Shown: piece by piece, positions 27,407 to 60,559 of the stretch
How the letters are laid out: every line of letters begins with the position of its first letter
Numbering within the stretch: position 1 is the first letter of the stretch
DNA from: Bacteroidia bacterium
Lineage (GTDB): Bacteria > Bacteroidota > Bacteroidia > UKL13-3
Assembly (NCBI GenBank): GCA_049318585.1
Contig: JBMOGB010000001.1
Span: 1-60,850 of the forward strand
Direction: 5' to 3'
Length of the DNA stretch: 60,850 nt
Notes under the pieces: model-generated
Seen by the model: the letters and a program-made list of their open reading frames with translations, nothing else
Told to the model about the DNA's origin: nothing
Database searches by the model: none
Translations under genes and position numbers: made by a program

Positions 27407-27450
27407 TCAAAAGTTCAAACTTCCTTGTGAATTTGAATGGAGAAAAACAA

Positions 27451-41913: not shown

Positions 41914-43611
41914 ATGATAACAAACCCAAGAGATGTATTAAAAGCTGCGAGCCAATTAAATGATAGTTTTGTTTTAAATGAAAAATTTCCGTTACCATTA
42001 TTAGCAGCAAAAGCAAGGAAAGCTGCATTAAATGATTTAGGAGATCAATCAATTAGGGTCTTATCTACTGTTTTGACAAAGATGTCAGAAAACGGCAAAA
42101 TATTTATAACTCGTGGAGAGTTTAAAAATATTTGTTCAAAATTCGCTTCTACAAATAGTTCTATAAATGATTATTTTTCTGAGGAACTTGGACCACAAGC
42201 AGAAGCTAAACCAGATAGACCTCTCGCTGGACAAGCGACGCAAGAGCATCGTGGATTATATAGTCAAGCAGATTCTTTTATGTCAAATGCACTTTCTGAT
42301 CTTTGGGATTCAGAAGGAAAAATCAACAAGGAAGCTAAAAGTAATTTATTTGATCCATTAGTAGCAAAGCAGGCTCAAAAATTAACTAATCTCGAATTAA
42401 CTAGACTTGGTGTCTCTCCAAAAAATGTTAATGTTTTTGCTGGCACTGATTCTTTTATAATTTGTGATGCATCATATGAAACTCCAAAGGGTGAATCTCA
42501 TTTATTAATTCCAGTTGAAATTTCAAAATCTGGGGCATTAATTCCTAATTTATTTGTAAGCAAACATGGATTAGCAGATTTATCAAGAGAAACAGTAAAA
42601 CAACATGTATTAGCTTCTGCTGGAAGAAGCTTTAATGTAAATTCAAAATTGCTTATTGACACATTAAATTTTGCTAAACAAGCTTCTACAATGAGCGAAT
42701 TTGAAATTAAAGCACTTGCTCTTCAAGATCATGTAAATAATAATAAAATAAGAAAAACAGCATCTAATAGAATGGAAATGCCATTCTCTGATAATGGAAT
42801 TTTTATAAAAGAAATCGATTCAAATAAATCGCAAAATGTTATGATGCAAATGCCAAAAGCTCCAGAATTTGAAAAATTTGCAAGCTCATTAAGTTCAGAA
42901 CGAGGCAAAGCAGAATTTATCTTTGGACAAGACATTATAAATAATACTAAAAGAGCAATAATTTCTAAAGTTGCTTCTTTTGGATATTCCCCACAGGTAT
43001 CAGTGGCATCTTGCGACAAAGAGGATGATATAGTAGTTTATGCTGTAAGAGTAGATACCCCAAATGGTCCAGCTGGATTTGAAGTTATGGCTGAAATGCA
43101 TAAAGATAAAGCTGTACTTCCATCAATAATAAGCGTAGCTGATAAGGCATATGATTTTACAAGCGAAGGAATTGCTTCTATTACTAGGTCTAATTATACT
43201 GATTATAAAACAGTAGCTACTGTATCTCCATTATATGAATTGAAGTCTACAGATATTTTAGAAAATATTAGAACAGCTGCAAACAATGGTGATTTCAAAT
43301 CAGCAGAAGAAGCTTTGTTGGTCCTAGCAGAAAAGGGCAATCAAGAGGTTTATTCACAAGGATTAGCTGAATATATGAGAAGCGTACACGCAAGCTCAAA
43401 TTTATCTCTAAAGAAACAAGCTGCTCAAAAGAGTGGATGTACTAGAATGATTAAAGTTTCTACCCATTCAAATCCAGTATGCGGACATTTGAATGTGCCT
43501 TTAGATCAAGTTTATCAAAATGAGCATGGAGAATGTGTACCTAAATATAGAAAGAATATGACTAATACATATGAAGGAGCATTTTTTAATACATCAAAGA
43601 TTTTTGGATAG
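41914..43611 (+). CDS. Hypothetical protein, putative virion protein
   Basis: 565 aa; internal duplication (YETPKG..L.IPVEI....ALIP vs VDTPNG....VMAEM....AVLP); several KxA motifs; C/H cluster at C-terminus. Confidence 0.7.
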   Translation: MITNPRDVLKAASQLNDSFVLNEKFPLPLLAAKARKAALNDLGDQSIRVLSTVLTKMSENGKIFITRGEFKNICSKFASTNSSINDYFSEELGPQAEAKPDRPLAGQATQEHRGLYSQADSFMSNALSDLWDSEGKINKEAKSNLFDPLVAKQAQKLTNLELTRLGVSPKNVNVFAGTDSFIICDASYETPKGESHLLIPVEISKSGALIPNLFVSKHGLADLSRETVKQHVLASAGRSFNVNSKLLIDTLNFAKQASTMSEFEIKALALQDHVNNNKIRKTASNRMEMPFSDNGIFIKEIDSNKSQNVMMQMPKAPEFEKFASSLSSERGKAEFIFGQDIINNTKRAIISKVASFGYSPQVSVASCDKEDDIVVYAVRVDTPNGPAGFEVMAEMHKDKAVLPSIISVADKAYDFTSEGIASITRSNYTDYKTVATVSPLYELKSTDILENIRTAANNGDFKSAEEALLVLAEKGNQEVYSQGLAEYMRSVHASSNLSLKKQAAQKSGCTRMIKVSTHSNPVCGHLNVPLDQVYQNEHGECVPKYRKNMTNTYEGAFFNTSKIFG

Positions 43612-43617
43612 GTAATT

Positions 43618-44337
43618 ATGACAAATAATAATAAAAATGAAGAATTACAAATTAAGTCTCATCAAATTGCATATGATATAATAAAATCTACTGCAAGCTG
43701 GCTTGAAAATCCAGACAATGAAGTCTTTGGCTTATTTGAATTTGATGAAGATTCGCTTAATATTGCAGCTAAAGCATCAATTATAGCTTCTGAAGTATTA
43801 AAAAAAGCAGCCCTAGATATACAAATAGCGTCTGGAATAGAAGATACAAATAAATATGATAGAAATGTATTGGATGCAATGTATGATTTGCGAGCCATCG
43901 CAGATGACCTAGATGCGTCTGGACATGATTCATTAATGAAAAAAGCAAGCGCTTTAGATGAAATTCTTATTACAATGGCATCTGGAGTTGAAGCTCAAGA
44001 GCAAATGAAAATAAAATTTGAGAAAAAAATTGCAGAAATTCAAAATAGGGCAAAAAAAAAGAAAGTAGCTACTGAAAAAAATATAAAAGAAGCTAATAAA
44101 GAATTAAGACCATTAGAAGCCGCTTTATCAACAAGAACTTGTCCTAATCATCCAGGTGCCCAAATGGCAAGACTAAGAGACGATATTTGGTATTGTATGA
44201 GCTATTCTGAACAAATTGATTATAAAAATGGATATACTACTGCTAAAGGGAATAAAGTTCCTGGCACAGATGTTAATAACCAAACTGATTACGCTAATAA
44301 TTTACAGATTAATACAATGTTTCAAGACAATAAATAA
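43618..44337 (+). CDS. Hypothetical protein, putative virion protein
   Basis: IADDLDASG...KKASALDEIL helix; LSTRTCPNHPG. Confidence 0.7.
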   Translation: MTNNNKNEELQIKSHQIAYDIIKSTASWLENPDNEVFGLFEFDEDSLNIAAKASIIASEVLKKAALDIQIASGIEDTNKYDRNVLDAMYDLRAIADDLDASGHDSLMKKASALDEILITMASGVEAQEQMKIKFEKKIAEIQNRAKKKKVATEKNIKEANKELRPLEAALSTRTCPNHPGAQMARLRDDIWYCMSYSEQIDYKNGYTTAKGNKVPGTDVNNQTDYANNLQINTMFQDNK

Positions 44338-44348
44338 AGAAATGCAAT

Positions 44349-45119
44349 ATGTCAGATTATCACAAGCTATTAAATCATCCAGATCGAGATCAAATAATCT
44401 CTCGTTTAACTGCTGGCGAGCCCGTTAGAGAAGTATCTATATGGCTTAAACAAAAGTATCCAAACAATAAATATAATCAAGCGTCTTTTGCCTTCTTGGA
44501 TAGATTTAGAAGGAATTATTTAAATATTCATGGTACTATCTTAGAAGACTTGAAAACAAAAATTCAAGAACAACAACATGAAGAAATGAATGAGCATATT
44601 AAACAAGTTGTTAAAAAAAATAAAACATATAGTGAAAAGCTCGAAGAGATTGTTGATACACAAATAGATTGGAAAAAAAGACTAAATCAATATTTAAATA
44701 TTGTTGAGACTCGATTTGCTGCTTTATTTGATATGGCTCAAGAAAATCCAAAAAGTTTAAAACCAGACAGAGCTATGATTGATTGGATGCGAAATATGTT
44801 AGAAATGGTAAGAGAAATCAGGAAAGTTGAAGGAGCCCCAGACCAAATAATACAACATAACGTCGCGATAACAGCAGTTGATGAAAAAGTTTCAATATTA
44901 CAACAAGCAGTTATAATGACTCTTTCTGAATTGCCAATTCAAACTTCATCATATCTTATAGATAAATTGCATGAAAATTTAAAACAAGTAGAAGAAGATA
45001 TGAAAAATGGTGGTTCTATTTTTGGAGTTGATAATATTAAAAAAATAGAAACAATCGCTGCTAAAATATTGCCAATGAGTGATATAACTGAAGATAGTGA
45101 GGATTATAAAAATGAATGA
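44349..45119 (+). CDS. Helical protein with N-terminal HTH, candidate small terminase
   Basis: HPDRDQIISRL..GEPVREVSIWL HTH-like start, coiled-coil body, upstream of terL (inference). Confidence 0.4.
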   Translation: MSDYHKLLNHPDRDQIISRLTAGEPVREVSIWLKQKYPNNKYNQASFAFLDRFRRNYLNIHGTILEDLKTKIQEQQHEEMNEHIKQVVKKNKTYSEKLEEIVDTQIDWKKRLNQYLNIVETRFAALFDMAQENPKSLKPDRAMIDWMRNMLEMVREIRKVEGAPDQIIQHNVAITAVDEKVSILQQAVIMTLSELPIQTSSYLIDKLHENLKQVEEDMKNGGSIFGVDNIKKIETIAAKILPMSDITEDSEDYKNE

Positions 45120-47217
45120 TTTTCTTCAAAAAAGAATGAAAGAAGCCTTAACTAAAGCTTCTACTAAAAAATTTAAAAATATAATCGCTTCACAATTTTA
45201 TATTTTTAATAGCTTTGGAATTTCAAATGAAGATGAATTAGAAAAATTTCATTATTTATCACAAACTGTTCCTTTTTATGTGAAAAAAATAACTGGGTCT
45301 TCTGACCAGGATATGTCCAATAAAATAATAAAAAACTCATTAAAAATAAATGATAATGATTTTATTAGATATGATATAAAAGAAGTTGTAGCAAAAGCTT
45401 TTTCAAAATTAAAGCTTATAAAAGTTGCTTATCCAAATGTAAACGATGATATTACACCAATAAAATCATATGACCTAAGTAAGTGGGTTGAAGCATTAAA
45501 TAATATATATGTAAGAACTAAATTATATAATAATAGAAAACTAGCTATAGACCAAATAACTAATAAATGGGAAGACATACAAGAAAAAGCCGATTTTGAA
45601 CGATGGGTAAAATTTTATCAAGATGGTGGTGCTACAATGTATAAATTAGCTGAAGGAATTCCAATGTTACCAATTCAAGCAATACCTGGACTATCTCCTA
45701 GAAATGATAGGTTTGTAGTTCCAGAGAATGAAAACAATGAGCTAGATGGAATAGGCAATGAAAAGCCAGATAAACCTGAAATGTCTATAGAAGATATTCG
45801 AGAAAAAATAGTAAGTAGAATTACTTCTATTGAAAAAATACTTCTAGGAGCATCTAAAAAACTAAAAGATTCAGATTATACTAAATTATTAACTAATTTA
45901 TTAAATTTAAAAAATGATATTTTTCAAGTGAAAACCGCTTCTATGATAGTAGATGTTATAAATAGAACTCAATATTCATTAGAAAAAAGTGGTGTTAGTA
46001 ATGATACTTTAGGCTTATTTTCAAAAATAGCACAGTTAGCTCCTATGCCAGATCTTGGCGGTATGCCAAGTATGCCACCACCTCCAGGCGGCGCTCCTGG
46101 TGCTCCTGGCGGTGCTCCTGGTGCTGAGCAAGCAAATCCAGACGAAGCTTTAAAAGGCTTTGTAAGAAACTTAAAAGAAGCAGCCCCACAGACGCCACCT
46201 TTATCAAAAGATAAGATACCCCCTGCAGTTCCTCCAGCGCCTGGAACGCCTCCAGCGCCTGGAACGCCTCCAGCGCCTGGAACGCCGCCAGCCCCTGGAA
46301 CGCCGCCAGCATCTGGAACTACTGGAACTACTGGAAGTACTGGAGCTACCGCAGCTCCACCAGCAGCAGGAGCACCGCCCGCAGCTCCTGCCGCTCCCGC
46401 CGAGCCAGCTAAGCCAGCTGAACCAGCTGGGGCAAAAAAACCAGAACCTGCTGGACAACCAAAGAAAGCAAGTTGGGTTTATGTGGAAACACCAGAACTT
46501 AAAAAATTAAAGTCAATAGCAAATGGGCTAAGTAATTTAATATTATATGCAAATAAGCAGTTAATAGTTACGGCTCAAATGGCGCCTACAAATATAAATA
46601 ATCCAGAACCAATGGCAATAGATACTGAAACTGCAATACCAGCTCCTCCAGAAGCAGAAGAAGCTGCAAAACAAGAATCAATTCCAAAAACTGTAAAGAA
46701 AAGAATTGAAAGTGAGCCTCTAGTTACAGTTAAACATCCTTCAGATTCATTGCTGCTTGGTATAGACAATGATGTTTTAGAAGGAGCTTTAGACAGTATC
46801 ACTATTAATGATGTAATTACAAGATTACAAGCTTTATCCAAAGTATTTAAAAATAGAGAAATAGCAAGACAATTAGCTATTATAGATATCATGTTAGATA
46901 AACTTGGTATTGCTGGCTTTTTCCCATCACTAGCAGAAGCAACAAGATCTGCTTTGGAATCAAATCAATATTCTCAAACACGTATTGAAGAAATTCTATC
47001 TAAATTAATATCGGCAACAAATGATGAAGGCAAATCAAGAATAAATTCAAATAATGTTCCTGGTGATAGCGTTATAGATAAAGAAATGAAAGAATATATG
47101 GGCGAAAATGAAGTAAAAAATAGCGGACAGCCAGCAAACCAGCAACCTATGCCTCAATCAGCAGCCCCATCTACAGGTATACAACCACCACCTATTGAAA
47201 CTCCATTAGGCATATAA
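45112..47217 (+). CDS. Large protein with Pro/Ala-rich linker, putative virion protein
   Basis: ATG 45112 after GAGG; multiple KxA motifs; PPAPGT repeats. Confidence 0.75.
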   Translation: MNDFLQKRMKEALTKASTKKFKNIIASQFYIFNSFGISNEDELEKFHYLSQTVPFYVKKITGSSDQDMSNKIIKNSLKINDNDFIRYDIKEVVAKAFSKLKLIKVAYPNVNDDITPIKSYDLSKWVEALNNIYVRTKLYNNRKLAIDQITNKWEDIQEKADFERWVKFYQDGGATMYKLAEGIPMLPIQAIPGLSPRNDRFVVPENENNELDGIGNEKPDKPEMSIEDIREKIVSRITSIEKILLGASKKLKDSDYTKLLTNLLNLKNDIFQVKTASMIVDVINRTQYSLEKSGVSNDTLGLFSKIAQLAPMPDLGGMPSMPPPPGGAPGAPGGAPGAEQANPDEALKGFVRNLKEAAPQTPPLSKDKIPPAVPPAPGTPPAPGTPPAPGTPPAPGTPPASGTTGTTGSTGATAAPPAAGAPPAAPAAPAEPAKPAEPAGAKKPEPAGQPKKASWVYVETPELKKLKSIANGLSNLILYANKQLIVTAQMAPTNINNPEPMAIDTETAIPAPPEAEEAAKQESIPKTVKKRIESEPLVTVKHPSDSLLLGIDNDVLEGALDSITINDVITRLQALSKVFKNREIARQLAIIDIMLDKLGIAGFFPSLAEATRSALESNQYSQTRIEEILSKLISATNDEGKSRINSNNVPGDSVIDKEMKEYMGENEVKNSGQPANQQPMPQSAAPSTGIQPPPIETPLGI
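46231..46347 (+). repeat. 18-bp coding tandem repeat cctccagcgcctggaacg (PPAPGT) x5 then 9-bp actggaact-like x3
   Basis: Read directly; GC-rich island. Confidence 0.9.
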
Positions 47218-47218
47218 A

Positions 47219-47953: not shown

Positions 47954-48451
47954 ATGAAAAATAAAATAGTAAAATTAGCTATGATAAGAGAGAATGATGA
48001 AAGCCCATGCCCTTATGGATTAACTATTCCAGATGCTTGTATATCTGCTGGTAGGCTTGTTAATAATATGACATCATTAGAATCTGATGATCCAAAAAAA
48101 ATAGAAAAAGAAGATGTGGATAAAATAAAGCAATCTAATAATAGAGTTTTAATGTTATCCAAAGATAAGCCTGCAAGATGCAGATATCTTAACTCTATGT
48201 TTGATAAAAATGAATTTGAAGAAGATACGGAAGCAAAAGTAGAGTGTAGCTTTGGCGATACAGCAGCGGCTGGTGTTGGTAATGCAAATCTTAGTGCAAC
48301 CACTCCTTTAGCTCAATATCTTGGAGTAGGTTACTTCAGTTCACCGCTTGGTTTTTATAATCAAGATCTTACTTATAGCAATGGATTCCAAGCTTATGTT
48401 AATAGATATTTCGCATCATTAAAAGATGATGATAAAATTAAGAAACAATAG
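47954..48451 (+). CDS. Cys-containing hypothetical protein
   Basis: SD GAGG; CPYGL..PDAC...CRY...VECSFGD. Confidence 0.7.
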   Translation: MKNKIVKLAMIRENDESPCPYGLTIPDACISAGRLVNNMTSLESDDPKKIEKEDVDKIKQSNNRVLMLSKDKPARCRYLNSMFDKNEFEEDTEAKVECSFGDTAAAGVGNANLSATTPLAQYLGVGYFSSPLGFYNQDLTYSNGFQAYVNRYFASLKDDDKIKKQ

Positions 48452-49457: not shown

Positions 49458-49560
49458 TTTTTTTACAAATAAATTAAATATTTTTTCTTGTTAAAATTAA
49501 TATATGGATTTTTTCATATGAATATTGCAATATAACATATAGAAGTCTTATGGAGATAAT

Positions 49561-50460
49561 ATGAGAAAAATAGCACAGCATTCAAGACCAACACATAATG
49601 ATGACGATTTTGATTTTCCATTCTCTGCCGAAGTGGATGAATGTGAAACCGACAATGATAACGATGATGCTGATGATGATACTGCCGATGAGGATTATAT
49701 AGAAGAAGAGTCTCAAATTGAAGTATCAGAGCACGGAGACAAAGGTGAACCTAAAACATATATATTTAAATTAGATATTGTTCCAGGCGCTGGGTCAGAT
49801 ACTGTTGAAGAAATGCAGGAAGAAGTTGAAATTGATGAAAAAACAAATACCCCAGTAGATGATTGGGATTGGGAATCTGGCGGATTATCTAAATTTTTAG
49901 AATGGCTAGAGGTTAGGTTCAAAGGTATTCCACAGCACAAAGGGCAAGACACTACTGGAGTAGAAAGAGCTTTAGCTTATTTCCAGCGTCTAGATACGGA
50001 AATTTCTCGCGCGATGAAGAAAGATTATAAGAGAGAAATTGATGCCTCTTCAGCAGAAGAAGCAAGAACAGAAATTATGAATGGTATGGATAGACTAATT
50101 GAACGTCTAGAAAAACTACGCAATAAAAAATTCAAAAAGAACAAAAAAGCTGGATATAATGCATTTGTAAAAACTGCAGAAACCTCAACAACTGGCAGAA
50201 TGATAGTTAATGTACCATATTTTATTTCAAATGTAGCTAGAACATGTATTGACGCTACAGTCCAAGGTGGTAAAGATATGGAAGAAGTCTTTGTAAAAGT
50301 TGCAAAAGAATATGACCTTGATAAACGAGAAAAATCGCAAGTTGTTCAATTAATTAAAGATATGGGTTATCCAATGATGTTGGATAGAGTAAATCCGTTC
50401 AAACCAATTAATCCATCAAGCAGTGAAGTTAGTGAATATATGACACAATATTACGCATAG
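49561..50460 (+). CDS. Hypothetical protein with acidic N-terminus, putative virion protein
   Basis: SD GGAG; MRKIAQ, NKKAG, VKTAE motifs. Confidence 0.75.
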   Translation: MRKIAQHSRPTHNDDDFDFPFSAEVDECETDNDNDDADDDTADEDYIEEESQIEVSEHGDKGEPKTYIFKLDIVPGAGSDTVEEMQEEVEIDEKTNTPVDDWDWESGGLSKFLEWLEVRFKGIPQHKGQDTTGVERALAYFQRLDTEISRAMKKDYKREIDASSAEEARTEIMNGMDRLIERLEKLRNKKFKKNKKAGYNAFVKTAETSTTGRMIVNVPYFISNVARTCIDATVQGGKDMEEVFVKVAKEYDLDKREKSQVVQLIKDMGYPMMLDRVNPFKPINPSSSEVSEYMTQYYA

Positions 50461-50467
50461 AGGATTT

Positions 50468-51022: not shown

Positions 51023-51023
51023 T

Positions 51024-52958
51024 ATGGCTCAAAATGAAACCGATCTTAAAACATCTGAAGAAATTTTTGCAAGAGCTAAGTTTTCATTAGAGAATATAGA
51101 CCCGGTATTTTTCTGCGAAAATAATCTAACACTTGATGGAAGACCATTTAGAATAAGAAAAAATGGTTATAAACCTTTCGTAGAAATGTATAGATATATT
51201 GGAATCAAAGCATTAACAAAACAATCAAAACCAATCGTTTTAGTAAAAGGACGCCAAGTTGGAGCAACAACAATGGGCGTTAATTTAGAAATGTTTTTTA
51301 TGGGAAGCGGATTGTTTGGTGTTAATGGTAGACCACCAATGCGTATAATGCATTTATATCCTATGCTTGAATCAGCAAAAGCATATTCAAAAACAAAATT
51401 AAATCAAACTATTGTGCAATCAAAGCCAATAAGCGTAAAAAATAAAACTAAAGGTATTATGGAATCGTTATTGTCAGATAATACTGGAGGTGATTCTGTA
51501 CATTTTAAAGAATTTATAAATGGAAACCATATTTGGGTAGAATCTGTTGGCGTTAATGCGGACAGATTGCGCGGTAGAACTGCAGACCTTATGTTTTTCG
51601 ATGAAGTTCAAGATATGTTTAAAAGAGCTATTCTTAATGCTGAACAACTTTTAAAGAAATCACAATATGGTCCTCCAGGCTCCGGTATAAAAATATATAT
51701 GGGAACTCCTAAAGATAAAGATTCAATGTATTATGATATTTGGATCAATTCTACTCAAAATTATTTTTATTTAGGCTGTGAATATTGTGGAGAATTATTT
51801 CCGTTATATACGCCAGAATCTGATGACTGGGAAAAAATTTGGCTGGAAGGATATTACCCCAAATGCGATCATTGTGATAAAAGCTTTAGTGAAAAAAAAC
51901 ATAATGGTTTCCAAGTGAGATGCACTAAATGTAAACATGTTCAAGACAAAAGAGATGCTGCAGAAAAAGGGCAATGGATTGGAAAGCCAGAAGATGATTG
52001 TAAATATGTTGGCTTCCATATAAATGTTTTATATATGCCTGAATATACTAGAGAGTCTATTGTCGCCCAAAAGCCAGGAGTAAGCGTTACAGTTGACGAA
52101 ACTGCATGGAAAAATGAAGTGCTTGGAGAGTTTTATGCTGGTGGAGGAATAGTTGTAACATCAGAAGAAATTAGAAGAAATTGCGCAGACTTTGACAGAA
52201 AAATGCGCAAAATCATTCTTCCAGAAGAATGCACAAATGATAGAAATGTTTATCTTGGATGTGACTGGGGAAAAAAAGTTGATGTTGTTAATACTAAAGA
52301 TGGTGATTCTAGACAAAAAAAAGGCTCTTATAGCTGTGTAGTTATATTGAAAGTGGAAGGTCCAGAATTATTTACAATCCAATTTGCAACTAAACTTATA
52401 AATAATGATGAACATTATAAACTTGAGTTTTTAGAACAAGCTATGATGAATTATAATGTAAAAGCAGCAGTTGGTGACGTTGGCTTTGCTTATGACTTTA
52501 TGAAAAAAGTTAATAATACATTTGGCAATAATTTCGTTGCAAGCGAAGCTTCTGGGCATCAAATTAATGGAAAGGCAAAATTTGCTGGCGATGATGAACC
52601 ACCAACAATTAGATTTGAACATGATTATTATATAGAGAAGATGTTTAAATTGTTTAGAACTGGAGCAATAAGATTCCCATTTAGAGACTGGGAAAATATT
52701 GGGTGGCTAGTACAACACTGCACTAACATGGTCGCTAAACCGCAAGCTGATAAACATGGAAATGTTATCATGAGATACTCAAAAGGGTCTATCCCCAATG
52801 ACGGTTTCATGGCATTAATAAATGCCTACCTGGCTTATGAATATGATATTACTAATGGGTATAAAGTAATGAAAAATACAATACCAGCTGAGCAAATGAA
52901 TAAATATAGAATATCAGCAATTGGTGCTCATGTCCCTGGTATGAGAATAACTCTATAA
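51024..52958 (+). CDS. terL: Terminase large subunit (lambda GpA-like)
   Basis: LVKGRQVGATT Walker A, LRGRTAD, LMFFDEVQD Walker B, MGTP, zinc ribbon, NEVLGEFY, nuclease GCDWG, NDGFMA. Confidence 0.88.
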   Translation: MAQNETDLKTSEEIFARAKFSLENIDPVFFCENNLTLDGRPFRIRKNGYKPFVEMYRYIGIKALTKQSKPIVLVKGRQVGATTMGVNLEMFFMGSGLFGVNGRPPMRIMHLYPMLESAKAYSKTKLNQTIVQSKPISVKNKTKGIMESLLSDNTGGDSVHFKEFINGNHIWVESVGVNADRLRGRTADLMFFDEVQDMFKRAILNAEQLLKKSQYGPPGSGIKIYMGTPKDKDSMYYDIWINSTQNYFYLGCEYCGELFPLYTPESDDWEKIWLEGYYPKCDHCDKSFSEKKHNGFQVRCTKCKHVQDKRDAAEKGQWIGKPEDDCKYVGFHINVLYMPEYTRESIVAQKPGVSVTVDETAWKNEVLGEFYAGGGIVVTSEEIRRNCADFDRKMRKIILPEECTNDRNVYLGCDWGKKVDVVNTKDGDSRQKKGSYSCVVILKVEGPELFTIQFATKLINNDEHYKLEFLEQAMMNYNVKAAVGDVGFAYDFMKKVNNTFGNNFVASEASGHQINGKAKFAGDDEPPTIRFEHDYYIEKMFKLFRTGAIRFPFRDWENIGWLVQHCTNMVAKPQADKHGNVIMRYSKGSIPNDGFMALINAYLAYEYDITNGYKVMKNTIPAEQMNKYRISAIGAHVPGMRITL

Positions 52959-54323: not shown

Positions 54324-54379
54324 ATTATTATATATAACAATTTGGGCTATATCGTTCAATTATGTTATATATAGCTATA

Positions 54380-56191
54380 ATGGATAATCAAGATAAACAA
54401 AAGTATGCTGTAAGTAATAGCGAAAAATATGTTTTAGCTAGGAAAGGGATACCGCAAGCGCCTTCTTATAAAACAACAAAGAATATGAGCCAGCAAAGAT
54501 TTGCAGAAGTTCAAAATCAAATTGAAAGAGGAGAATTTACGCAGTCTTTTGCTGGAGGAGACAGCTCAATTGAAAGTAAAATAAAAACAAGTGAAATGTC
54601 ATATGCTTGTATTGCAAGAGGCGCAAATACAGAGTTAAAAAAAGATGCAGATTTAAAAAAACTTGGGGCTACAGCAACAAGTAATCAGAGCGGAAATGCT
54701 TGGAGTGGATCTGGAGGGACTGTAAGACAAGGACCTGAAGTATATTCTCCATTATGGTTAACATCAAATACGCATATCCCAAGAGACAGAGGAACTACTA
54801 ATGCTTGGTGTAGAGCTTATTTTGCTTTAAATCCAATAGTAAATAATGCATTATCTTTACATTCAACTTATCCAATTGCAAAATTAAATATAAAATGCCC
54901 AAATAAAGAAGTTGAAACTTTCTTTAGCGAAATGGCTGATGAAATGGATTTATTAAATGTTTGCGTTCAAATGGCTCAAGAGTTCTTTGTAATTGGAGAG
55001 GTATTTCCATTATTAGAGCTTGATGAAAAAACTGGAAAATGGGCAAGATGTGTAATACAAAATCCTGATTATATGTATGTAAAAAGAACGGCAATAGCAT
55101 CTGAGCCTGAAATAAGCTTAAGACCAGATCCAGAATTAAGGAAAATTGTTCTTGATAATGATTCTGAGTCAGTAAAATTAAGAAAACAATTGCCTCCAGA
55201 TATAGTTAAATATGTAAAGGCTGGTAAAAATATTCCATTAGATAATTTTTATATTTCACATCTGGCTAGAAGAATTAGCGCATATGAAACAAGAGGCACA
55301 AGTATGATTGTATCTTGTTTTAAAGCATTAATGCTTTGGGACAAAGTAAGGGAATGTAAATATGCACAAGCGGATAATTTAATTAATCCTATAACATTGG
55401 TTAAACTTGGAGGAGCTGCAGATGCCGAATTCAAAGTAACTCCAGCAGATCTTGAAACGTGGCGGCAATTGCTTGAGGAGGCTCAGTTTGATAAAGATTT
55501 TAAAATAATAACTCATGGTTCTGTAACAATTGAAAGAATTAGCGGGGCTCAAGTTATAGATGTCTCTGCCGACATAACTCAATTGATAAAAGAAATATAT
55601 ATTGGGTTAATGGTACCACAGGTAATTATGGAATCTGGAGATATAACATATGCAAACGGTACATTAAGCCTTGATGTATTAAGGCAGAGATATTTGCAAT
55701 TTCAGAACATGTTGGCTAAATGGATTAAGCGGAGAGTATTTGCTCCAATATCTCAAATTCATGATTTTTGGGAAAGAAAAGATGGAGAAAAGAAATTAAT
55801 TATTCCAGATATTGAATGGAATCATATGAGTTTATTCGATTTGAATGATTATATTCAACAATTAAGTCTGCTCACTGGCGAAAGAAAATTGGTATCTGTT
55901 CATACATTATATAGATCATTAGGTCTTGATTATGAAGATGAACAAAGATTAATTAGGAAAGAAAGCGTTGACCAAGCAATTCATAAACGGGAAGAAGAAA
56001 CCTTGAATAAACTTAGCCTTACAGAACTTAAGGCATTGGATGATGATGATGAGATTCCAGACATTCCAGATCAACCAGTGCCTGGAGAATCTCCAGATGA
56101 GAATCCAGCGGCTGGTGGAGAAGCTGGCGGCGGCGGAATGGGCGGAATGGGCGGAATGCCGCCACCGCCAGCTGGTGCTCCCCCAACATAA
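54380..56191 (+). CDS. Portal protein
   Basis: Follows terL; NPIVNNAL, FFVIGEVF, HLARRISAYETRGTSMI, EIYIGLMVP, SVHTLYRSLGLDYEDE, acidic and Gly/Pro tail; probable ATG at 54380. Confidence 0.8.
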   Translation: MDNQDKQKYAVSNSEKYVLARKGIPQAPSYKTTKNMSQQRFAEVQNQIERGEFTQSFAGGDSSIESKIKTSEMSYACIARGANTELKKDADLKKLGATATSNQSGNAWSGSGGTVRQGPEVYSPLWLTSNTHIPRDRGTTNAWCRAYFALNPIVNNALSLHSTYPIAKLNIKCPNKEVETFFSEMADEMDLLNVCVQMAQEFFVIGEVFPLLELDEKTGKWARCVIQNPDYMYVKRTAIASEPEISLRPDPELRKIVLDNDSESVKLRKQLPPDIVKYVKAGKNIPLDNFYISHLARRISAYETRGTSMIVSCFKALMLWDKVRECKYAQADNLINPITLVKLGGAADAEFKVTPADLETWRQLLEEAQFDKDFKIITHGSVTIERISGAQVIDVSADITQLIKEIYIGLMVPQVIMESGDITYANGTLSLDVLRQRYLQFQNMLAKWIKRRVFAPISQIHDFWERKDGEKKLIIPDIEWNHMSLFDLNDYIQQLSLLTGERKLVSVHTLYRSLGLDYEDEQRLIRKESVDQAIHKREEETLNKLSLTELKALDDDDEIPDIPDQPVPGESPDENPAAGGEAGGGGMGGMGGMPPPPAGAPPT

Positions 56192-56255
56192 AAAATAATA
56201 ATTCCTGCTAATCAAAACATATAATATTGTAATATATTGTTTAGGAGTTTTTCTT

Positions 56256-58442
56256 ATGCAAAAAATAAAAAAAGAAGCGCAAGCGTTAACTAAATTGAAG
56301 GAGTTTGTCCTTCCAACTGGAAGAAGGAAGACGCTTAGAGTCTCTCCTGTTAGATTTGTTGGAAAAGAATTATTAAGGATGCGATCTCCTGACATATATG
56401 CGGAAGCTTTAGATAAAATAGAAGAAATTGATCAATTACTTAGAGAAGTAGTTAGTAATCAAAATATTACTTTAGCGGAAATGGATTCGTGGTTTGGTTC
56501 AAAGCGAGGTTTGTCTTCTCCAAATTTTGCAAAATCTGGTCTTAAATTTATAAGGCAGCAAGCCATTATAATTGGGGCAAGAAATAAATTAGATTCTTTA
56601 TTTAAAGGAAAAGGGGTACAACAAGAAATTGAAAGAGATATTGGAAAAACTCCAGAAAAAGAGCATGATTATAGCAAAACTGAGGATATGGAAGGGAAAT
56701 TAAATGCAATAAGCAGTATGTATAATAAGCTTTGCAAGCAAGCATATATGGCTGAAATGCTTGGTGGGGCATATTGGAGAAGCAGAACAAAAAGTGGAAG
56801 AGAATTCGTAAAAAGATTTAATACAGTCTTTAGTAAATTTAGACAAGTGCATAATAGCAACTTGCAAATTTTAAAAAACTTGGATGAACTTTTGGATATT
56901 GGAGACCCTGGAGAATATGCAAATGCAATGAAAAGATTTGTTGATTTTAACACATTGCAAGATAACGCCTTTAATACAGCTTGGGGCTTTTTCCACCAAT
57001 ATATAGAAACTGAAAATAAAGAATTTGAAACCAAAAATTTCATGGAACGAATTACTTTGTTGAAAACACAACATGAAAATGCTGAAGGCGGTCATAAAGA
57101 TAATATTAAAGGTAAAGCGCTCGCTTTATTAAAAAAAGATTTTGCTGGAATTATTTCAAAATTAAATAAAGAACAAGCAATAACATTATTAGATATATCA
57201 ACTTATTTTGATGATAAAACTTATATTACCGGCACTAAAACAGCAATAGCGACAATAACGAAAAAAGAAGCAGAAGCAGCTGCAGCAGCAGCAGCAGCAG
57301 CAGAAGCAGCAGCAGCACCAGCAGCACCACCAGCAGCAGAAGTAGCAGCAGCAGCACCAGCAGCGCCAGCAGCAGCACCAGCAGCATCAACACCAATAGA
57401 AACAGCAGCAGCACCAGCAGCAGAAGTAGAAGAAGAAGAAGCAGCAGAAGTAGAAGAAGAAGAAGCAGCAACAGAAGTAGCAGTAACAAAAGTAGCAGTA
57501 ACAACAGGATCTTATCAAGCAGCGGTATCATTTATAAAAACGGCAAAGCGCGACAAACAATATTGGAATAGTTTATATAGTATAAATAAAAAGACAGCAG
57601 CCAGTGATGATTGGAAAGTAAAAAAATCAGTTCCAGCAGCGGCACCTTCTGGACCAACGCCATCATTTGGCGATGATTCATGGAAGGAAAAAAGACCCTT
57701 TCCAGCGGCACCTCCCTTTCCAGCGGCACCTTCTGGACCAACGCGAGAAGCTCCACCAAGTCCATCATGGCGCAGCAAAGAAAAGGCAATAGTGCCTTCA
57801 GAGATAAAACAAGAACCTGTATTTAATCCTTCCATACCTACATGGGGAGATAGACCGCATAATGTTCCTTTAACATTAACGCGAGAAGCTCCAGCAATTA
57901 GCAGATATGCACCAGTTGAACAAGCAGACCCATTTACAGAAATCCAAAATAAAGAAAGAGTTAAGCCTGCTGAAATATCTAGACCAGAAGTTGAAAGAAG
58001 AATAGCGCCACCAGCATCTATAGCTAGAGAAGTTGAAGAAGAGGATGTTGATACTAGTTCAAATATTACGCCTGAAAATGATGATGTAAAGCAAGCGGCA
58101 AAAATTGCATATGACGTAAAAAAAATATTTAATAGAGTTTTAAAAAATAGCAAAAATATATTTATTTTTAGACCAGCATTAAGAGCAGAATTGGCAAAAA
58201 TAGGTTTGCAAAATTTTGAATCAATAGTTGGTACCAATCTTAATAGATTGTCGATACATCGTAGCACATATTTTTTGGTTATACCAGGAAGCCCAACAAT
58301 AGACCAAAAAAATGATTCTGAATATTTTGAATTTAAAGGAAATGGAAATAAAATAAAAAAATTAGATAAAGTAGCTTGCTTCATTTCTGCTGGCGGGCTT
58401 GAAGGTAAGATAAAAGGCGAAATAACAATAGATGAAGACTAA
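56256..58442 (+). CDS. Large protein with Ala/Glu/Pro low-complexity centre, putative virion protein
   Basis: SD AGGAG; several KxA motifs. Confidence 0.75.
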   Translation: MQKIKKEAQALTKLKEFVLPTGRRKTLRVSPVRFVGKELLRMRSPDIYAEALDKIEEIDQLLREVVSNQNITLAEMDSWFGSKRGLSSPNFAKSGLKFIRQQAIIIGARNKLDSLFKGKGVQQEIERDIGKTPEKEHDYSKTEDMEGKLNAISSMYNKLCKQAYMAEMLGGAYWRSRTKSGREFVKRFNTVFSKFRQVHNSNLQILKNLDELLDIGDPGEYANAMKRFVDFNTLQDNAFNTAWGFFHQYIETENKEFETKNFMERITLLKTQHENAEGGHKDNIKGKALALLKKDFAGIISKLNKEQAITLLDISTYFDDKTYITGTKTAIATITKKEAEAAAAAAAAAEAAAAPAAPPAAEVAAAAPAAPAAAPAASTPIETAAAPAAEVEEEEAAEVEEEEAATEVAVTKVAVTTGSYQAAVSFIKTAKRDKQYWNSLYSINKKTAASDDWKVKKSVPAAAPSGPTPSFGDDSWKEKRPFPAAPPFPAAPSGPTREAPPSPSWRSKEKAIVPSEIKQEPVFNPSIPTWGDRPHNVPLTLTREAPAISRYAPVEQADPFTEIQNKERVKPAEISRPEVERRIAPPASIAREVEEEDVDTSSNITPENDDVKQAAKIAYDVKKIFNRVLKNSKNIFIFRPALRAELAKIGLQNFESIVGTNLNRLSIHRSTYFLVIPGSPTIDQKNDSEYFEFKGNGNKIKKLDKVACFISAGGLEGKIKGEITIDED
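57263..57506 (+). repeat. (GCA)n-based tract including 24-bp gcagcagaagtagaagaagaagaa x2
   Basis: Read directly; almost every codon ends in A. Confidence 0.9.
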
Positions 58443-58454
58443 GCGAACATTAAA

Positions 58455-59396
58455 ATGCAAAACAACATAATAAAATTGGCATCAATTGAATTAAATAAGT
58501 CTAATGATATTATTAAGACTGCTGGAATACTTAGATTATTAAAGAACAAATTATTTAATTTATTTGATTCGGATAAATCTCAAAAAGTTTCAAGGATGAT
58601 AAGTTATACTGGATCCATTAAGCCATTATTAAATCAAACATATAAGCTTATAAAGGACATAGAATCTTCAATAGATGATTTAGATGTAGACACTTATAAT
58701 ACAAATATTGAGTTACTAAAGCAAAAAGTTAATGAGTTGAATAATGAATTAAATAAATTAAATAAATCATTGGATGAAGATGTAAAGGTAAGCGAATCTG
58801 AAAAGCAGAGATCGGCAATTGAATCAGGCGAAGCAGGCAGATTAACGGGTAGCTCAATAAGAGAAAGAGAAAGAGGAAGACAAAGACCAAGAGAACCAAG
58901 CTTACCTGAAGGAGCCGCAATGTATGATGGAATAAATAACTTAGCAGAGCTTGGCGTTAAAAAAGATGATATAATTGAAGGTAAAAATTTACAAAAATTT
59001 ATTGATTCTTGGAACCAACATTTAAAAGTAACAAGAATTAGTGGTGAAAAGAAAGGAGATATTCATAAAAAACAAAAAGCTTTAAATATTTTTGATATTA
59101 AATCTTTATTTTATGATAAGATACCATATATGAAAATTATAGACGTTCTACCAAGAGAATTAGATTCTACAGATAACTCAGTGTTTGGACGTCCAGGGGA
59201 AAGAAAACCAGGTTATTGTGAAATCAATGTAGAAAGTGATTTAACAGAATTACCTAAGCCATTAAATAACTGGCAATTAAAGGTTTTATTTAGATTAGTT
59301 GATCAAAGAAATAATACAAATGATACATTAAAATATACAATATATCTACAAAAAGTTATTAGAGCGATTGAAACAGAAGCCACAGAAGCCACATAA
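58455..59396 (+). CDS. Hypothetical protein, putative virion protein
   Basis: IIKLAS and IIKTAG motifs; coiled coil. Confidence 0.75.
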   Translation: MQNNIIKLASIELNKSNDIIKTAGILRLLKNKLFNLFDSDKSQKVSRMISYTGSIKPLLNQTYKLIKDIESSIDDLDVDTYNTNIELLKQKVNELNNELNKLNKSLDEDVKVSESEKQRSAIESGEAGRLTGSSIRERERGRQRPREPSLPEGAAMYDGINNLAELGVKKDDIIEGKNLQKFIDSWNQHLKVTRISGEKKGDIHKKQKALNIFDIKSLFYDKIPYMKIIDVLPRELDSTDNSVFGRPGERKPGYCEINVESDLTELPKPLNNWQLKVLFRLVDQRNNTNDTLKYTIYLQKVIRAIETEATEAT

Positions 59397-59423
59397 ACAT
59401 ATATAAAATAATAAAGAGAAATT

Positions 59424-59984
59424 ATGAGCAAAATATACAATATAGTAAAAGAAGCAATTAATAAAAACATGCAAATAAAATTGCAAGCGGCTCATTATTA
59501 TTTAAACTCCAGCAATATAAATAAATTTTCATCTTTATTATTAAAAAAAGCAGTTGCTGCAAAGCAAGGAAATGTAAAAATAATAAAAAAAATAGATTCA
59601 TTTGAAGATTATATAGATATGGTTAAAGCAAATACAACATCCATATATGAGCCAGTTTTACCAGAAACAAAAAACTTTAGAATTATAGCGGAAGATAATT
59701 CATTAAGCGAAATTGATGTTGTAAGCAGCTTATTAAAAATAAAAGAAAGATTTATAGAAGCTGGATTTAAATGTGAATTAATAAAGACAAATAAAAAATA
59801 TGGAATAAGATGTCATTCAAATGAGGATTACAATACAGACAAATTATATTCATTCGCATCAGAAATTACAAGAGGCATAAATATTAATTTGAATGATTTA
59901 AAAGTCGGCAAATTAAAAAGATTTAAATATAGTTTAGATGATAATGGACATCAAGATGTTATAATCAATGTGGGTGGACTATGA
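59424..59984 (+). CDS. Hypothetical protein
   Basis: 186 aa, ATGA-coupled to the next gene. Confidence 0.7.
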   Translation: MSKIYNIVKEAINKNMQIKLQAAHYYLNSSNINKFSSLLLKKAVAAKQGNVKIIKKIDSFEDYIDMVKANTTSIYEPVLPETKNFRIIAEDNSLSEIDVVSSLLKIKERFIEAGFKCELIKTNKKYGIRCHSNEDYNTDKLYSFASEITRGININLNDLKVGKLKRFKYSLDDNGHQDVIINVGGL

Positions 59985-60559
59985 TAAATCATTATTATGT
60001 AGATGATTCTAATTTTATATTTGAATATTTATCAAATGGAATTAAATCTTTTGATTCAAATAAATATGCTTCCGATATTAATATTAATAATGTTTTTAAT
60101 AATGAAAACAGAAATTATATCCCAGCAATATATAAAATTAAAGATAAGCAAACAAAATTAGAAATTAAAGAAGCCTTCGCAACCCCAGATTTAATTGAAA
60201 TAATCGATCCAAAAGAAATTGGAATAATAAGCAATAGTTCATCAATAGTTGCAAATATATATAAAACAAGCATTGATTCCATTATTTCTAGAATCCAAAA
60301 AGTTGCACAAAACTTGGCAATTGATAATGAAGACCTTGCAAAATATTTATCTTTAACTGTAAAAATGGCAACTGATAATAATATAAAAAATGCATTTGTA
60401 AGTTATGATTATTTAATGTCCAAATTGGATGGCAATAATAAAAAGATATTTAAGCAAGCTTATGAATCAGAAAAAGTTAGAGCCAAAGAATATTCTGTAT
60501 TAAACGATAGAGCCATATTAATGTCAGCAATGATTAAAGCGGGAGTTAAACTTGAATAG
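59981..60559 (+). CDS. Hypothetical protein
   Basis: SD GGTGG, ATGA overlap. Confidence 0.7.
   Translation: MINHYYVDDSNFIFEYLSNGIKSFDSNKYASDININNVFNNENRNYIPAIYKIKDKQTKLEIKEAFATPDLIEIIDPKEIGIISNSSSIVANIYKTSIDSIISRIQKVAQNLAIDNEDLAKYLSLTVKMATDNNIKNAFVSYDYLMSKLDGNNKKIFKQAYESEKVRAKEYSVLNDRAILMSAMIKAGVKLE

Follow-up and report, generated by a model that had tools for sequence, protein, structure and literature searches.

Introduction

Core proteins of phage T4 carry N-terminal capsid-targeting sequences (CTS) of about 10 amino acids, which are removed by gp21, as outlined in PMC9958956. The N-terminus of gp21 blocks its own active site and is then self-cleaved (described in PMC9958956 and PMC5694885). 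According to the account in PMC5694885, the proteases of T4, phiKZ and SPN3US all cut after Glu, and the assemblin fold is also that of T4-type phage proteases. For phiKZ and SPN3US, extra motif copies within propeptides and processed paralogues with identical N-termini are described (PMC5694885, PMC10052503).

Here, we analyzed a window comprising the first 60,850 bases of a 171,750-base contig of a phage-G-like megaphage. The original prediction held that a recurring K-x-A motif in its unknown proteins serves propeptide removal or head loading. The motif proved to be nonrandom, N-terminal and concentrated in the head region, but the internal copies included in that claim lay at background.

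Results

Gene starts were assigned by a simple rule (first ATG), without a gene finder. The genome is Lys-rich with 29% G+C, and Lys is the commonest residue (10.5%). Besides K-x-A, we used a strict form, [ILFVMYC]-x-K-[ILFVMY]-A, with 3,319 host ORFs from this assembly as the control. The finding block spans 41.4–60.6 kb of the window and entered the host comparison with 17 ORFs.

K-x-A occurred within the first 15 residues of 13/69 window ORFs, against 6.4 expected when each N-terminus was shuffled (P = 0.003, 5000 shuffles) and 5.0 and 6.3 expected from whole-protein and column shuffles, respectively; the N-terminal excess thus survived all three kinds of composition-matched shuffle. K-x-A ranked first among the X-x-Y patterns with at least four occurrences in these residues. 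The corresponding frequency was 5.8% in host ORFs (n = 3,319) versus 13/66 in the window, with 7/17 in the finding block (p = 3e-5) and 6/49 in the left part of the window (p = 0.06), and 13/64 window families were positive after paralogues were collapsed (p = 6e-5). The strict form was present in the first 25 residues of 22/164 contig ORFs versus 62/3319 host ORFs (p = 1e-11) and in 1/139 when an internal window of these phage proteins was scored instead; collapsing families gave 15/138 over the contig (p = 6e-8) and 5/64 in the window only (p = 0.007). Outside the window, 28 of the 106 ORFs had K-x-A in the first 25 residues versus 11 expected, a count reached in 0/400 shuffles. The first 45 residues held the strict form at 4.0 sites per 1000 residues, compared with 0.3–1.2 elsewhere. 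Codons for Lys, Ala and the hydrophobic residues vary synonymously between sites, indicating a signal at the protein level and not in DNA. The K-x-A excess is real, protein-level and N-terminus-specific. With a 15-residue model trained outside the window, which cannot score sites with Ala at residue 9 or earlier, 0/100 N-termini in portal loci and 1/66 in the window scored at least 8; the sole window case was IFYKLA of ORF 9666–9959(−) (K-L-A at 9918..9926, − strand; score 14.6).

All N-terminal K-x-A strings quoted in the original prediction are present where it placed them. On the + strand, as are all features described below in this paragraph and the next, ORF 14128–15648 (MAQYKIRKRA) has K-R-A at residues 8–10 (14149..14157). 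ORF 15650–16975 (MKKHA) has K-H-A at residues 3–5 (15656..15664), directly followed by a Pro/Ala-rich tract; its layout resembles that of relatives' family 12, in which a Pro/Gly-rich linker comes after an I-K-K-x-A-Q helix. ORF 41455–41904 has K-L-A at residues 22–24 (41518..41526), which is K-L-S in its L092 orthologue, and the N-terminal string of ORF 41914–43611, MITNPRDVLKAA, contains VLKAAS with K-A-A at residues 10–12 (41941..41949). ORF 47954–48451 (165 aa; MKNKIVKLA) has K-L-A at residues 7–9 (47972..47980), and this site lies at the extreme N-terminus in 4/4 orthologues from portal loci. In ORF 49561–50460 (299 aa; MRKIA), K-I-A occupies residues 3–5 (49567..49575), and the motif is kept in 2/6 orthologues (MTKTAQH, AVKIAQS). 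The N-terminal region of this protein is acidic.

The large terminase gene (51024..52958; phrog_675, 7e-56) has no N-terminal motif, and the portal protein gene (54362..56191; phrog_16240, 3e-47) starts the portal-to-capsid module, where the motif reaches its highest density. The post-portal ORF 56256–58442 (728 aa; MQKIKKEA) has K-E-A at residues 6–8 (56271..56279); the post-portal gene begins with M..K-x-A-Q in 3 of the 5 portal loci showing that gene (L090, L092, L095) and without it in L091 and L096, and no sequence homology was detectable among the post-portal genes of the loci compared. ORF 58455–59396 (313 aa) has two sites, K-L-A at residues 7–9 (58473..58481; MQNNIIKLA), invariant in 3/3 homologues found down to 37% identity, and an equally invariant K-T-A 14 residues later at residues 21–23 (58515..58523; IIKTA). 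Its first ~100 residues are the best-conserved stretch of the protein, which is unlike a disposable propeptide. ORF 59424–59984 (MSKIYNIVKEA) has K-E-A at residues 9–11 (59448..59456) and had no homologue in the loci fetched. Most window carriers matched no PHROG or Pfam family, ORF 41914–43611 among them, leaving the assumption that the unknown window ORFs are virion proteins unsupported.

Whole-protein K-x-A was observed 151 times versus 125 expected (O/E 1.2; rank 59 of 400 patterns), which puts the internal copies listed in the original prediction at background, except in ORF 41914–43611. This ORF (565 aa, + strand; first gene of the block) contains 12 K-x-A sites versus 4.2 expected, including six K-x-A-S (K at 10, 76, 255, 281, 321 and 352) versus 0.44 expected, and was the only clearly enriched ORF of the 176 examined (Poisson 7e-6 from its own composition). 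Its single orthologue (L092) has 14 sites versus 4.8 expected, mostly at non-aligned positions, and K10 is not conserved in it. FSKIA (K305; 46024..46032, +) and PKKA-S (K451; 46462..46470, +) do bracket the Pro/Gly/Ala-rich tract of ORF 45112–47217, as had been noticed (coordinates calculated by hand from the ORF start), and IDKKA precedes the acidic tract of 9959(−). What follows Ala is loosely specified, with A, S, F, Q, T and G each only 1.4–1.9x above expectation (K-x-A-S 1.6x, K-x-A-A 1.7x).

Among the 26 ORFs of the portal-to-capsid module, 21 had K-x-A and 10 the strict form in the first 45 residues, compared with 12/55 and 0/55 annotated non-structural ORFs and 1/5 and 0/5 tail ORFs. 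Across the module, the first 47 residues contained 29 sites, compared with 10.0 ± 2.9 after shuffling. The view that replication enzymes lack the motif mostly held: within the first 25 residues, K-x-A occurs in 7/55 annotated non-structural ORFs and the strict form in none. The motif is restricted to head-module and cargo-like proteins. The major capsid protein carries it (..IMKFA-S, residues 24–26), and 76/77 relatives have K-[YFL]-A; the decoration protein had it in 0/73 relatives. The original prediction was correct that no prohead protease is visible in the window; the gene lies at contig 62511–65762, 1.7 kb past the window end, named by PHROG match only (3e-15), with no Pfam or PDB sequence match. 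The N-terminus of the protease reads F-x-K-hydrophobic-A (K35 and A37 in at least 90% of 25 sequences), a second site, K-x-I-A-P, with Pro after Ala, lies directly before the conserved core, and a coiled-coil-like C-terminal part of ~800 residues is fused to it. Occurrence on the capsid protein and the protease themselves, together with the motif distribution and the nearby protease gene, forms the pattern of T4 and phiKZ-type processed head proteins (PMC9958956 for T4).

The motif also stands in front of enzymes (GNAT, HD, nucleotidyltransferase and DnaJ) and of PcfJ/LRV domains. Compared with its untagged paralogue at window position 47219, the tagged nucleotidyltransferase (contig 93569) is longer by a 26-residue N-terminal extension, and the first ~38 nt of its gene recur in near-identical form at the 5' ends of the two adjacent, unrelated GNAT genes. 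One of the two encoded J-domain proteins (contig 70527) is tagged and lies in the head module. The proteins at 78278 and 82773 have a common tag and otherwise no detectable similarity (E = 0.54). From these sequences, we read the tag as a portable add-on.

In relatives, K-x-A in the first 45 residues was kept in 6/22 families versus 1–2 of 18–19 in internal windows; conservation in homologues, which the original prediction named as a check, holds for these 6 families. Orthologues of 82773 in MCP loci have the strict motif in 55/56 cases; among 107 deep representatives, 65 have the strict motif and 83 K-x-A, and 24 lack K-x-A in the first 60 residues, so Lys and Ala are not invariant. In 78278 orthologues, the first site is followed by a variable linker and a conserved L-x-K-T-A-[SA], and in family 6, 'l-K-x-A' alone is conserved within a variable stretch. 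The motif often precedes variable or low-complexity linkers, as noticed originally, and is kept as protein in relatives of 25–48% G+C. Judged from sequence comparison, it is conserved across the phage-G-like clade. The closest cultured relative is phage G (52% capsid and 35% protease identity), whose gp19 also has the protease motif doublet and whose capsid protein has no counterpart of the tagged N-terminal 41 residues. There, K-x-A fell within the first 25 residues of 13/59 head-region ORFs, compared with 7/74 over the 50 kb that follow (p = 0.053), and K-x-A-[ASG] gave 6/59 versus 0/74 (p = 0.007), suggesting that the motif is modestly present.

The conserved unit is wider than K-x-A, namely hydrophobic-x-x-hydrophobic-x-K-hydrophobic-A over ~10–18 residues, and is often extended in close relatives by x-E-K-G-L-I after the core; conservation reaches ~8 residues upstream of Ala and, in relatives, 6 downstream. 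The mean helical hydrophobic moment was 0.44 versus 0.30 for internal or shuffled 11-mers, a partly circular measure, since hydrophobic residues at i, i+3 and i+4 are built into the motif definition. This amphipathic unit resembles a docking helix more than it does a bare scissile site.

Discussion

The best reading, by analogy with the T4 CTS, is a head-incorporation helix, which the prohead protease probably trims. We hold with intermediate confidence that the helix marks proteins built into the prohead interior, docks and is then trimmed by the protease (tether-and-trim). The marked set would comprise the major capsid protein, scaffold/core-like proteins whose genes lie between those for portal and capsid, the protease-scaffold fusion and cargo enzymes; the helix would dock each to one shared partner within the core or shell as it assembles, and the protease would cut at or shortly after K-x-A, often one in a variable linker, freeing or clearing the protein. 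We infer the docking into the prohead, the cleavage and the position of the scissile bond.

A pure cleavage code, with K-x-A as the protease recognition site and N-terminal and internal copies cut without docking, seems rather unlikely. It would explain the motif on the capsid protein, the protease and nearly all portal-to-capsid genes, like the T4 cleavage motif, the K-x-A-[SA] conserved within otherwise variable linkers (78278 family, family 6), the sites flanking the Pro-rich linker of ORF 45112, and the threefold enrichment at drifting positions in ORF 41914 and its orthologue, as for a multi-cut scaffold-like substrate. However, internal copies taken as a whole stay at background (O/E 1.2; 0.3–1.2 versus 4.0 per 1000 residues), the conserved stretch exceeds the 3-residue motifs of known phage proteases, and the residue after Ala is poorly defined. 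A general chaperone or degron signal would not be expected to keep to portal-to-capsid genes, the capsid protein and the protease, and we consider it improbable that the helix is recognised outside head assembly, by chaperones (Hsp70/J-protein), as a degron for an ATP-dependent protease or as a membrane helix. Its amphipathicity (with the partly circular measure) and the two J-domain proteins, one tagged in the head module, are compatible with such recognition, as is the ClpXP that phage G encodes and that was detected in its particles (reported in PMC12484599), but no ClpP or ClpX was found on the present contig.

An artefact of composition, paralogy or start calling is very improbable. Lys is the commonest residue, several carriers are tandem paralogues, the motif was chosen post hoc in the original prediction, the strict form is sparse in the window alone and gene starts follow the first-ATG rule; the excess nevertheless survives three shuffles, the same-assembly host control, internal windows and family collapsing, and it was replicated on 106 ORFs that played no part in the original prediction and in other genomes. 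The controls largely refute this reading. We give almost no credence to a DNA-level signal, such as a late-promoter-like TATAAAT within TTT-TAT-AAA-TTR-GC that happens to be translated in frame. For the F-Y-K-L-A subset, the coding sequence is TTTTATAAATT, which may resemble a T4 late promoter, and three consecutive genes have ~38 near-identical nt at their 5' ends; yet across all sites the amino acids persist while their codons change freely (AAA/AAG for K, GCA/GCT/GCG/GCC for A, and likewise for L and I), and the protein motif is conserved in relatives across the 25–48% G+C range.

Comparison with known systems

The proposed head-incorporation helix is most like the T4 CTS/gp21 system, in which short N-terminal peptides occur on prohead core proteins and the set includes an injected enzyme, as presented in PMC9958956. 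The capsid protein and the protease, N-terminally processed in T4 (PMC9958956, PMC5694885), are tagged here and would be cleaved likewise, and the genes lie between the portal and capsid genes. Unlike the Glu sites of T4, phiKZ and SPN3US, the motif ends in Ala with a conserved Lys two residues before. Whereas the T4 CTS, in the account of PMC9958956, shows conservation only between IPII and IPIII, the present motif is on ~20 protein families of one contig, and the protease, unlike that of T4, is fused to its coiled-coil-like C-terminal part. As in phiKZ and SPN3US, also giant phages, many head proteins are involved, several of them having N-terminal propeptides in those phages (PMC5694885, PMC10052503). 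The motif differs from their (S/A/G)-X-E cleavage site, and the capsid and protease lineage here is nearest phage G.

Herpesvirus assemblin maturation and release sites have the consensus (V/L/I)-X-A followed by S, and the herpesvirus tether is C-terminal. If the cut falls after Ala, the systems would share P1 = Ala, often with a small residue next (here the K-x-A-S and K-x-A-A excesses), and release of a scaffold tail tethering to the shell; the conserved Lys two residues before Ala and the N-terminal tether differ. The capsid and scaffold proteins of staphylococcal phage 80alpha mimic the site of host Prp, the ribosomal protein L27 protease, and likewise have short N-terminal leaders ending in Ala common to capsid and scaffold. 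Prp-site mimicry was rejected here: L27 of the assembly starts MAHKKGAG with no leader, and nothing in the genome (85% complete) matched Peptidase_Prp (PF04327). Encapsulin cargo-loading peptides are mostly C-terminal and send enzymes inside an HK97-fold shell; the tag here is N-terminal with no sequence resemblance to them, but by analogy only, both would be short portable peptides directing diverse enzymes into a shell.

Results

The phage contig

The contig, whose first 60,850 b make up the window (171,750 b, 29% G+C, no terminal overlap; from an assembly of 649 contigs and 4.9 Mb), is a phage contig. The window holds the genes for the large terminase (51024-52958) and the portal protein (54362-56191). 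Genes for a DnaE-type polymerase, SbcCD, a primase and a UvsX-like protein lie on the left, and ribonucleotide reductase, DnaB/DnaC and sugar-metabolism genes on the far right. The nearest cultured relative is Bacillus phage G, with 52% identity in the capsid protein (residue 45 onward) and 35% in the protease, gp19. Of 360 confirmed IMG/VR contigs, 80 were kept; these encode capsid proteins about 80% identical, and some are 340–480 kb long. Therefore, the window comes from a megaphage lineage that is widespread and, for the most part, uncultured.

Several other genes were observed. An 85-aa ORF at 7872-8126 (+) matches a phage ribosomal protein S21 family (phrog_21469, 2e-6); huge phages with bS21, predicted to infect Bacteroidetes, have already been described (excerpt of PMC9723584). 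A phage-encoded peptide deformylase lies at 12278-12811 (+; phrog_2890, 7e-23), and the C-terminal two thirds of a 147-aa protein at 9959-10402 (−) are nearly all Asp/Glu. The DnaE-type polymerase (27427-32244, +; 1605 aa) matches polymerase families at residues ~7-490 and ~830-1525, and the unmatched stretch between them is possibly an insertion such as an intein. A 13-member HNH/homing-endonuclease-like family (phrog_559/681) is spread over the contig, with one member at 52959-54359 (−), between the terminase and portal genes and on the opposite strand.

Enrichment of K-x-A at N-termini

The original prediction held that K-x-A near the N-termini of the unannotated proteins is a candidate head-maturation cleavage or targeting code. 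All the N-terminal strings it quoted were found in place, its two examples of sites bordering low-complexity tracts were correct, and the N-terminal enrichment exceeded chance: 13 of the 69 window ORFs had K-x-A by residue 15, against 6.4 expected when each N-terminus was shuffled (P = 0.003), 5.0 with whole-protein and 6.3 with column shuffling. Among X-x-Y patterns seen at least four times in the window N-termini, K-x-A ranked top. Compared with a rate of 5.8% in 3,319 ORFs of the same composition from the other contigs of the assembly, the motif was found in 13/66 ORFs of the window, 7/17 of the block at 41.4-60.6 kb (p = 3e-5) and 6/49 of the left, replication part (p = 0.06).

Internal copies, which had been counted as further instances, did not behave as a signal (151 in whole proteins vs 125 expected). 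In its strict form, [ILFVMYC]-x-K-[ILFVMY]-A, the motif had a density of 4.0 per 1000 residues up to residue 45 vs 0.3–1.2 deeper in the proteins, and the internal copies are mostly noise. The exception is ORF 41914-43611, with 12 K-x-A sites (4.2 expected), six of them K-x-A-S (Poisson 7e-6 against 0.44 expected); the orthologue carries 14 sites (4.8 expected), mostly at differing positions. A multiply cut, scaffold-like substrate would look like this, or else a repetitive helical protein. Separately, two adjacent ORFs with no known function, 14128-15648 and 15650-16975 (both +), end in the same C-terminal string, (F/Y)-I-K-V-A-K-I-L, and the latter has a long Pro/Ala-rich tract directly after its N-terminus.

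On the rest of the contig, 106 ORFs not covered by the original prediction served as an independent test set. Within their first 25 residues, 28 had K-x-A (11 expected) and 19 had K-[ILFVMY]-A (4.1 expected), and none of 400 shuffles reached either count; thus, the strongest part of the phenomenon lies just past the window end. Over the whole contig, 22/164 ORFs had the strict form in the first 25 residues, compared with 62/3319 host ORFs (p = 1e-11); an internal window gave 1/139. A ZOOPS-style EM search for motifs wandered off to the initiator Met. When a 15-residue weight matrix was trained on sites beyond the window, it hit 155 of 928 N-termini in the relatives' capsid loci, mostly capsid proteins and orthologues of ORF 82773, and only 1 of 66 in the window and 0 of 100 in the portal loci.

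Carriers and mobility of the tag

The motif is concentrated between the portal and capsid genes. Here, with only ORFs of at least 80 aa counted and nucleases and a dehydrogenase left out (27 ORFs, or 26 without a third homing nuclease at 87674), K-x-A was found in the first 45 residues of 21/26 ORFs and the strict form in 10/26. The corresponding values were 12/55 and 0/55 for ORFs annotated as non-structural, and 1/5 and 0/5 for the tail region. The 27 ORFs contained 29 sites in their first 47 residues vs 10.0 ± 2.9 after shuffling the same residues. The motif Ala falls at residues 5-37. PHROGs and Pfam searches gave no match for the window ORFs 41914, 43618, 44349, 45112, 47954, 49561, 50468, 56256, 59424 and 59981, and a weak one (E = 3.4e-4) for 58455, to a PHROG family of unknown function; a protein atlas had no usable match for 56256 or 82773, and the PHROG search gave no family for 78278, 98871 and 119358. 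Most window carriers have no family, so they are putative virion proteins by gene position.

The motif also precedes recognizable domains: a J-domain (contig 70527), an HD domain (91361), two GNAT domains (92268 and 92923), a CCA/poly(A)-polymerase-type nucleotidyltransferase (93569) and PcfJ/LRV proteins (132763 and 135728). The tagged nucleotidyltransferase aligns from residue 32 onward with residue 6 of an untagged paralogue (window 47219), and over its first ~38 nt it hardly differs from the 5' ends of both adjoining, unrelated GNAT genes, after which the similarity ends. ORFs 78278 and 82773 likewise have the tag in common and nothing else. The tag, an N-terminal helix-like segment carrying the motif, is an add-on before unrelated enzymes and has moved between genes, an indirect hint that it may suffice to bring a foreign protein into the capsid. 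In this cluster (L003:12268-13673, contig 92268-93673), each of the three genes starts right after the preceding stop with the same ~38 nt, and the true start of the third is likely its sixth codon (contig 93584). The contig encodes two J-domain proteins, at window 35534-36565 (+) and L002:10527-10862 (contig 70527-70865), of which the smaller, latter one lies in the head module and has the N-terminal tag.

Conservation in relatives

Across the relatives' capsid loci, the motif was present in an all-or-none manner by family. It occurred in 76 of 77 capsid proteins, 55 of 56 orthologues of 82773 and 22-29 of 30 orthologues of 78278, and was absent from the decoration protein (0/73), two other structural families (0/65 and 0/30) and an untagged CCA enzyme (0/39). 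In 6 of 22 families, at least 70% of members had K-x-A in the first 45 residues; internal windows gave 1-2 of 18-19. The alignments contain units longer than the motif itself: M-x-x-S-E-I-F-x-x-F-V-K-I-A-Q-E-K-G-L-I-S followed by a variable linker in the 82773 family, and, in the 78278 family, M-R-S-L-E-K-V-A-x-E-K-G-L-V-K separated by a variable stretch from L-x-K-T-A-[SA]. In family 6, 'l-K-x-A' was the sole conserved element within a variable segment, and in family 12 a Pro/Gly-rich tract came after the helix. The 82773 family was sampled by 107 full-length representatives with at most 50% mutual identity; up to residue 60, K-x-A was present in 83 of them and the strict form in 65. Three of four internal windows had the strict form in only 6-8, and the fourth contained a second conserved site.

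The expectation that motif positions would be conserved was borne out unevenly in the window. Both sites of 58455 were invariant in its three homologues and the 47954 site was kept in 4/4 orthologues; the 49561 site was kept in 2/6, and the first site of 41914 was absent from its one orthologue. The gene after the portal starts M..K-x-A-Q in three of five portal loci.

Capsid protein, protease and phage G

The capsid protein (contig 86540-87553; phrog_2522, 1e-76) reads ..QTIMKFA-SILEDN, with the motif at residues 24-26. A candidate prohead protease gene, which had not been seen in the window and was to be sought elsewhere in the genome, begins 1.7 kb past the window end (contig 62511-65762, 1083 aa; phrog_18299 'head maturation protease', 3e-15). 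Its sequence ..RFVKIAANWKKIAP.. lies directly upstream of the conserved core (about residues 46-262); in 25 sequences, K35 and A37 of the first site were kept in at least 90%, and H59, D134-H135 and S186 were invariant. A Pfam search with the protease gave no match, and sequence and profile searches of the PDB found none for the core and only coiled-coil noise for the C-terminal part. The C-terminal ~800 residues are coiled-coil-like, so the protein is probably a protease–scaffold fusion. In some metagenomic homologues (P0027, P0043), Pfam detected Hint/LAGLIDADG intein domains within the protease gene.

Phage G gp19 has the same K-x-A doublet as the protease. In the first 25 residues of the 57 annotated CDS of the phage G head region, K-x-A occurred 14 times vs 7 expected (P = 0.002) and K-x-A-[ASG] 7 times vs 1.4. 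Relative to the next 50 kb, the counts were 13/59 vs 7/74 (p = 0.053) and 6/59 vs 0/74 (p = 0.007), respectively, suggesting modest support for the motif in this phage. In that region, gp9, gp13, gp20, gp38, gp56 and gp65 carry K-x-A-[AS]. Its capsid protein, gp27 (L008:18290-19138), starts at a position matching residue ~42 of our capsid protein and is separated from the gene before it by just 25 nt, which means that the tagged N-terminal extension is lacking in phage G. Mycobacteriophage QBert, a distant relative in protease and capsid protein, gave only a weak hint (R-F-A-K-A-S in the capsid N-terminus).

Discussion

From its distribution and conservation, N-terminal K-x-A is a genuine signal of the head-module proteins and is conserved in this megaphage lineage. 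The proposed cleavage or targeting role is plausible and partly supported for the N-terminal sites, which are non-random and carried by the capsid protein, the protease and the portal-to-capsid genes, and falls away for most internal copies. Judged from gene position only, the carriers would be prohead-interior proteins. In our preferred reading, the motif would form the core of a head-incorporation helix common to such proteins, and the prohead protease would trim at or after the site.

These two steps can be weighed separately. A pure cleavage code, which seems less likely, would need no more than the cut site. The K-x-A-[SA] sites kept within variable linkers point to cutting, and the conserved unit is long, which favours docking. 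Less likely still, the helix might be recognised for another purpose, for instance as a degron or by a chaperone; the sites do lie in amphipathic helix-like segments (helical hydrophobic moment 0.44 vs 0.30 in controls), a measure that is partly circular because the motif pattern is itself helical, and the strict form marks 10 of 26 portal-to-capsid ORFs and none of the 55 annotated non-structural ones. Among sites paired on one protein, 7 of 19 pairs were spaced 7 or 14 residues apart, three of them in paralogues, too few for a conclusion on heptad spacing.

That composition, paralogy or the calling of gene starts produced the motif as an artefact is unlikely: with paralogues collapsed, the strict form still marked 15 of 138 families on the contig (p = 6e-8) and 5 of 64 in the window alone (p = 0.007). 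A signal at the DNA level, which the shared ~38 nt might bring to mind, was rejected, since the Lys, Ala, Leu and Ile codons at the sites vary synonymously and the residues are kept.

Beyond the head-module signal itself, a broader reading is possible, and we regard it as rather doubtful: a portable N-terminal helix ending K-hydrophobic-A would be a universal prohead ticket in phage-G-like megaphages, a clade that is widespread, has few cultured members and includes contigs as long as 480 kb, and the protease–scaffold fusion would cut after the Ala. If so, the Ala specificity would be herpesvirus-like, unlike the Glu specificity of T4 and phiKZ, and the packaged proteins injected with the DNA could be read from sequence alone; on this contig, they would include two GNAT acetyltransferases, an HD hydrolase, a CCA-type nucleotidyltransferase, a J-domain protein and PcfJ/LRV proteins.

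Megaphage heads contain a wealth of proteins with no known function, and we know of no account of how heads of the phage-G-like clade are loaded and matured. In the literature covered, we found no description of the motif; the phage G head-structure paper and supplementary proteome tables, which may bear on the point, lay outside that coverage. A tag readable from sequence and common to the capsid protein, the protease, scaffold-like proteins and enzymes would allow head-interior and perhaps injected proteins to be listed for testing across hundreds of uncultured genomes. It would also give a likely substrate code for an uncharacterised prohead protease family and, like the T4 CTS, a handle for loading very large capsids with foreign proteins. 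Phage G, with its modest version of the signal, is cultivable.

Comparison with known systems

The consensus site of herpesvirus assemblin has a hydrophobic residue at P3, Ala at P1 and Ser at P1'. An assemblin-like Ala-Ser site was rejected here: Lys stands two before Ala in ~92% of the 22 training sites, and Ser follows K-x-A in only 34 of the contig's sites (21 expected). A mimic of the host Prp/L27 leader was rejected as well, with 0 matches to PF04327 and an L27 that starts MAHKKGAG, with no leader, in an assembly 84.7% complete.

Known prohead proteases cut after Glu, at L/I-x-E in T4 and A/S/G-x-E in phiKZ and SPN3US (PMC5694885, in part), whereas the conserved residues here are K and A, not E. 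Apart from this defining motif, the proposed mechanism would resemble the T4 CTS/gp21 and phiKZ/SPN3US systems. In T4, core proteins have an N-terminal targeting sequence of ~10 residues (excerpted text of PMC9958956), and the N-terminus of gp21 itself blocks the active site until self-cleavage (excerpts of PMC9958956; PMC5694885). A short N-terminal peptide on prohead-interior proteins, as in a T4-type CTS or a prohead-protease propeptide, is found here too, with the interior location suggested by gene position, and the carrier set (capsid protein, protease, nearly all portal-to-capsid genes and some enzymes) matches the set processed by T4 gp21.
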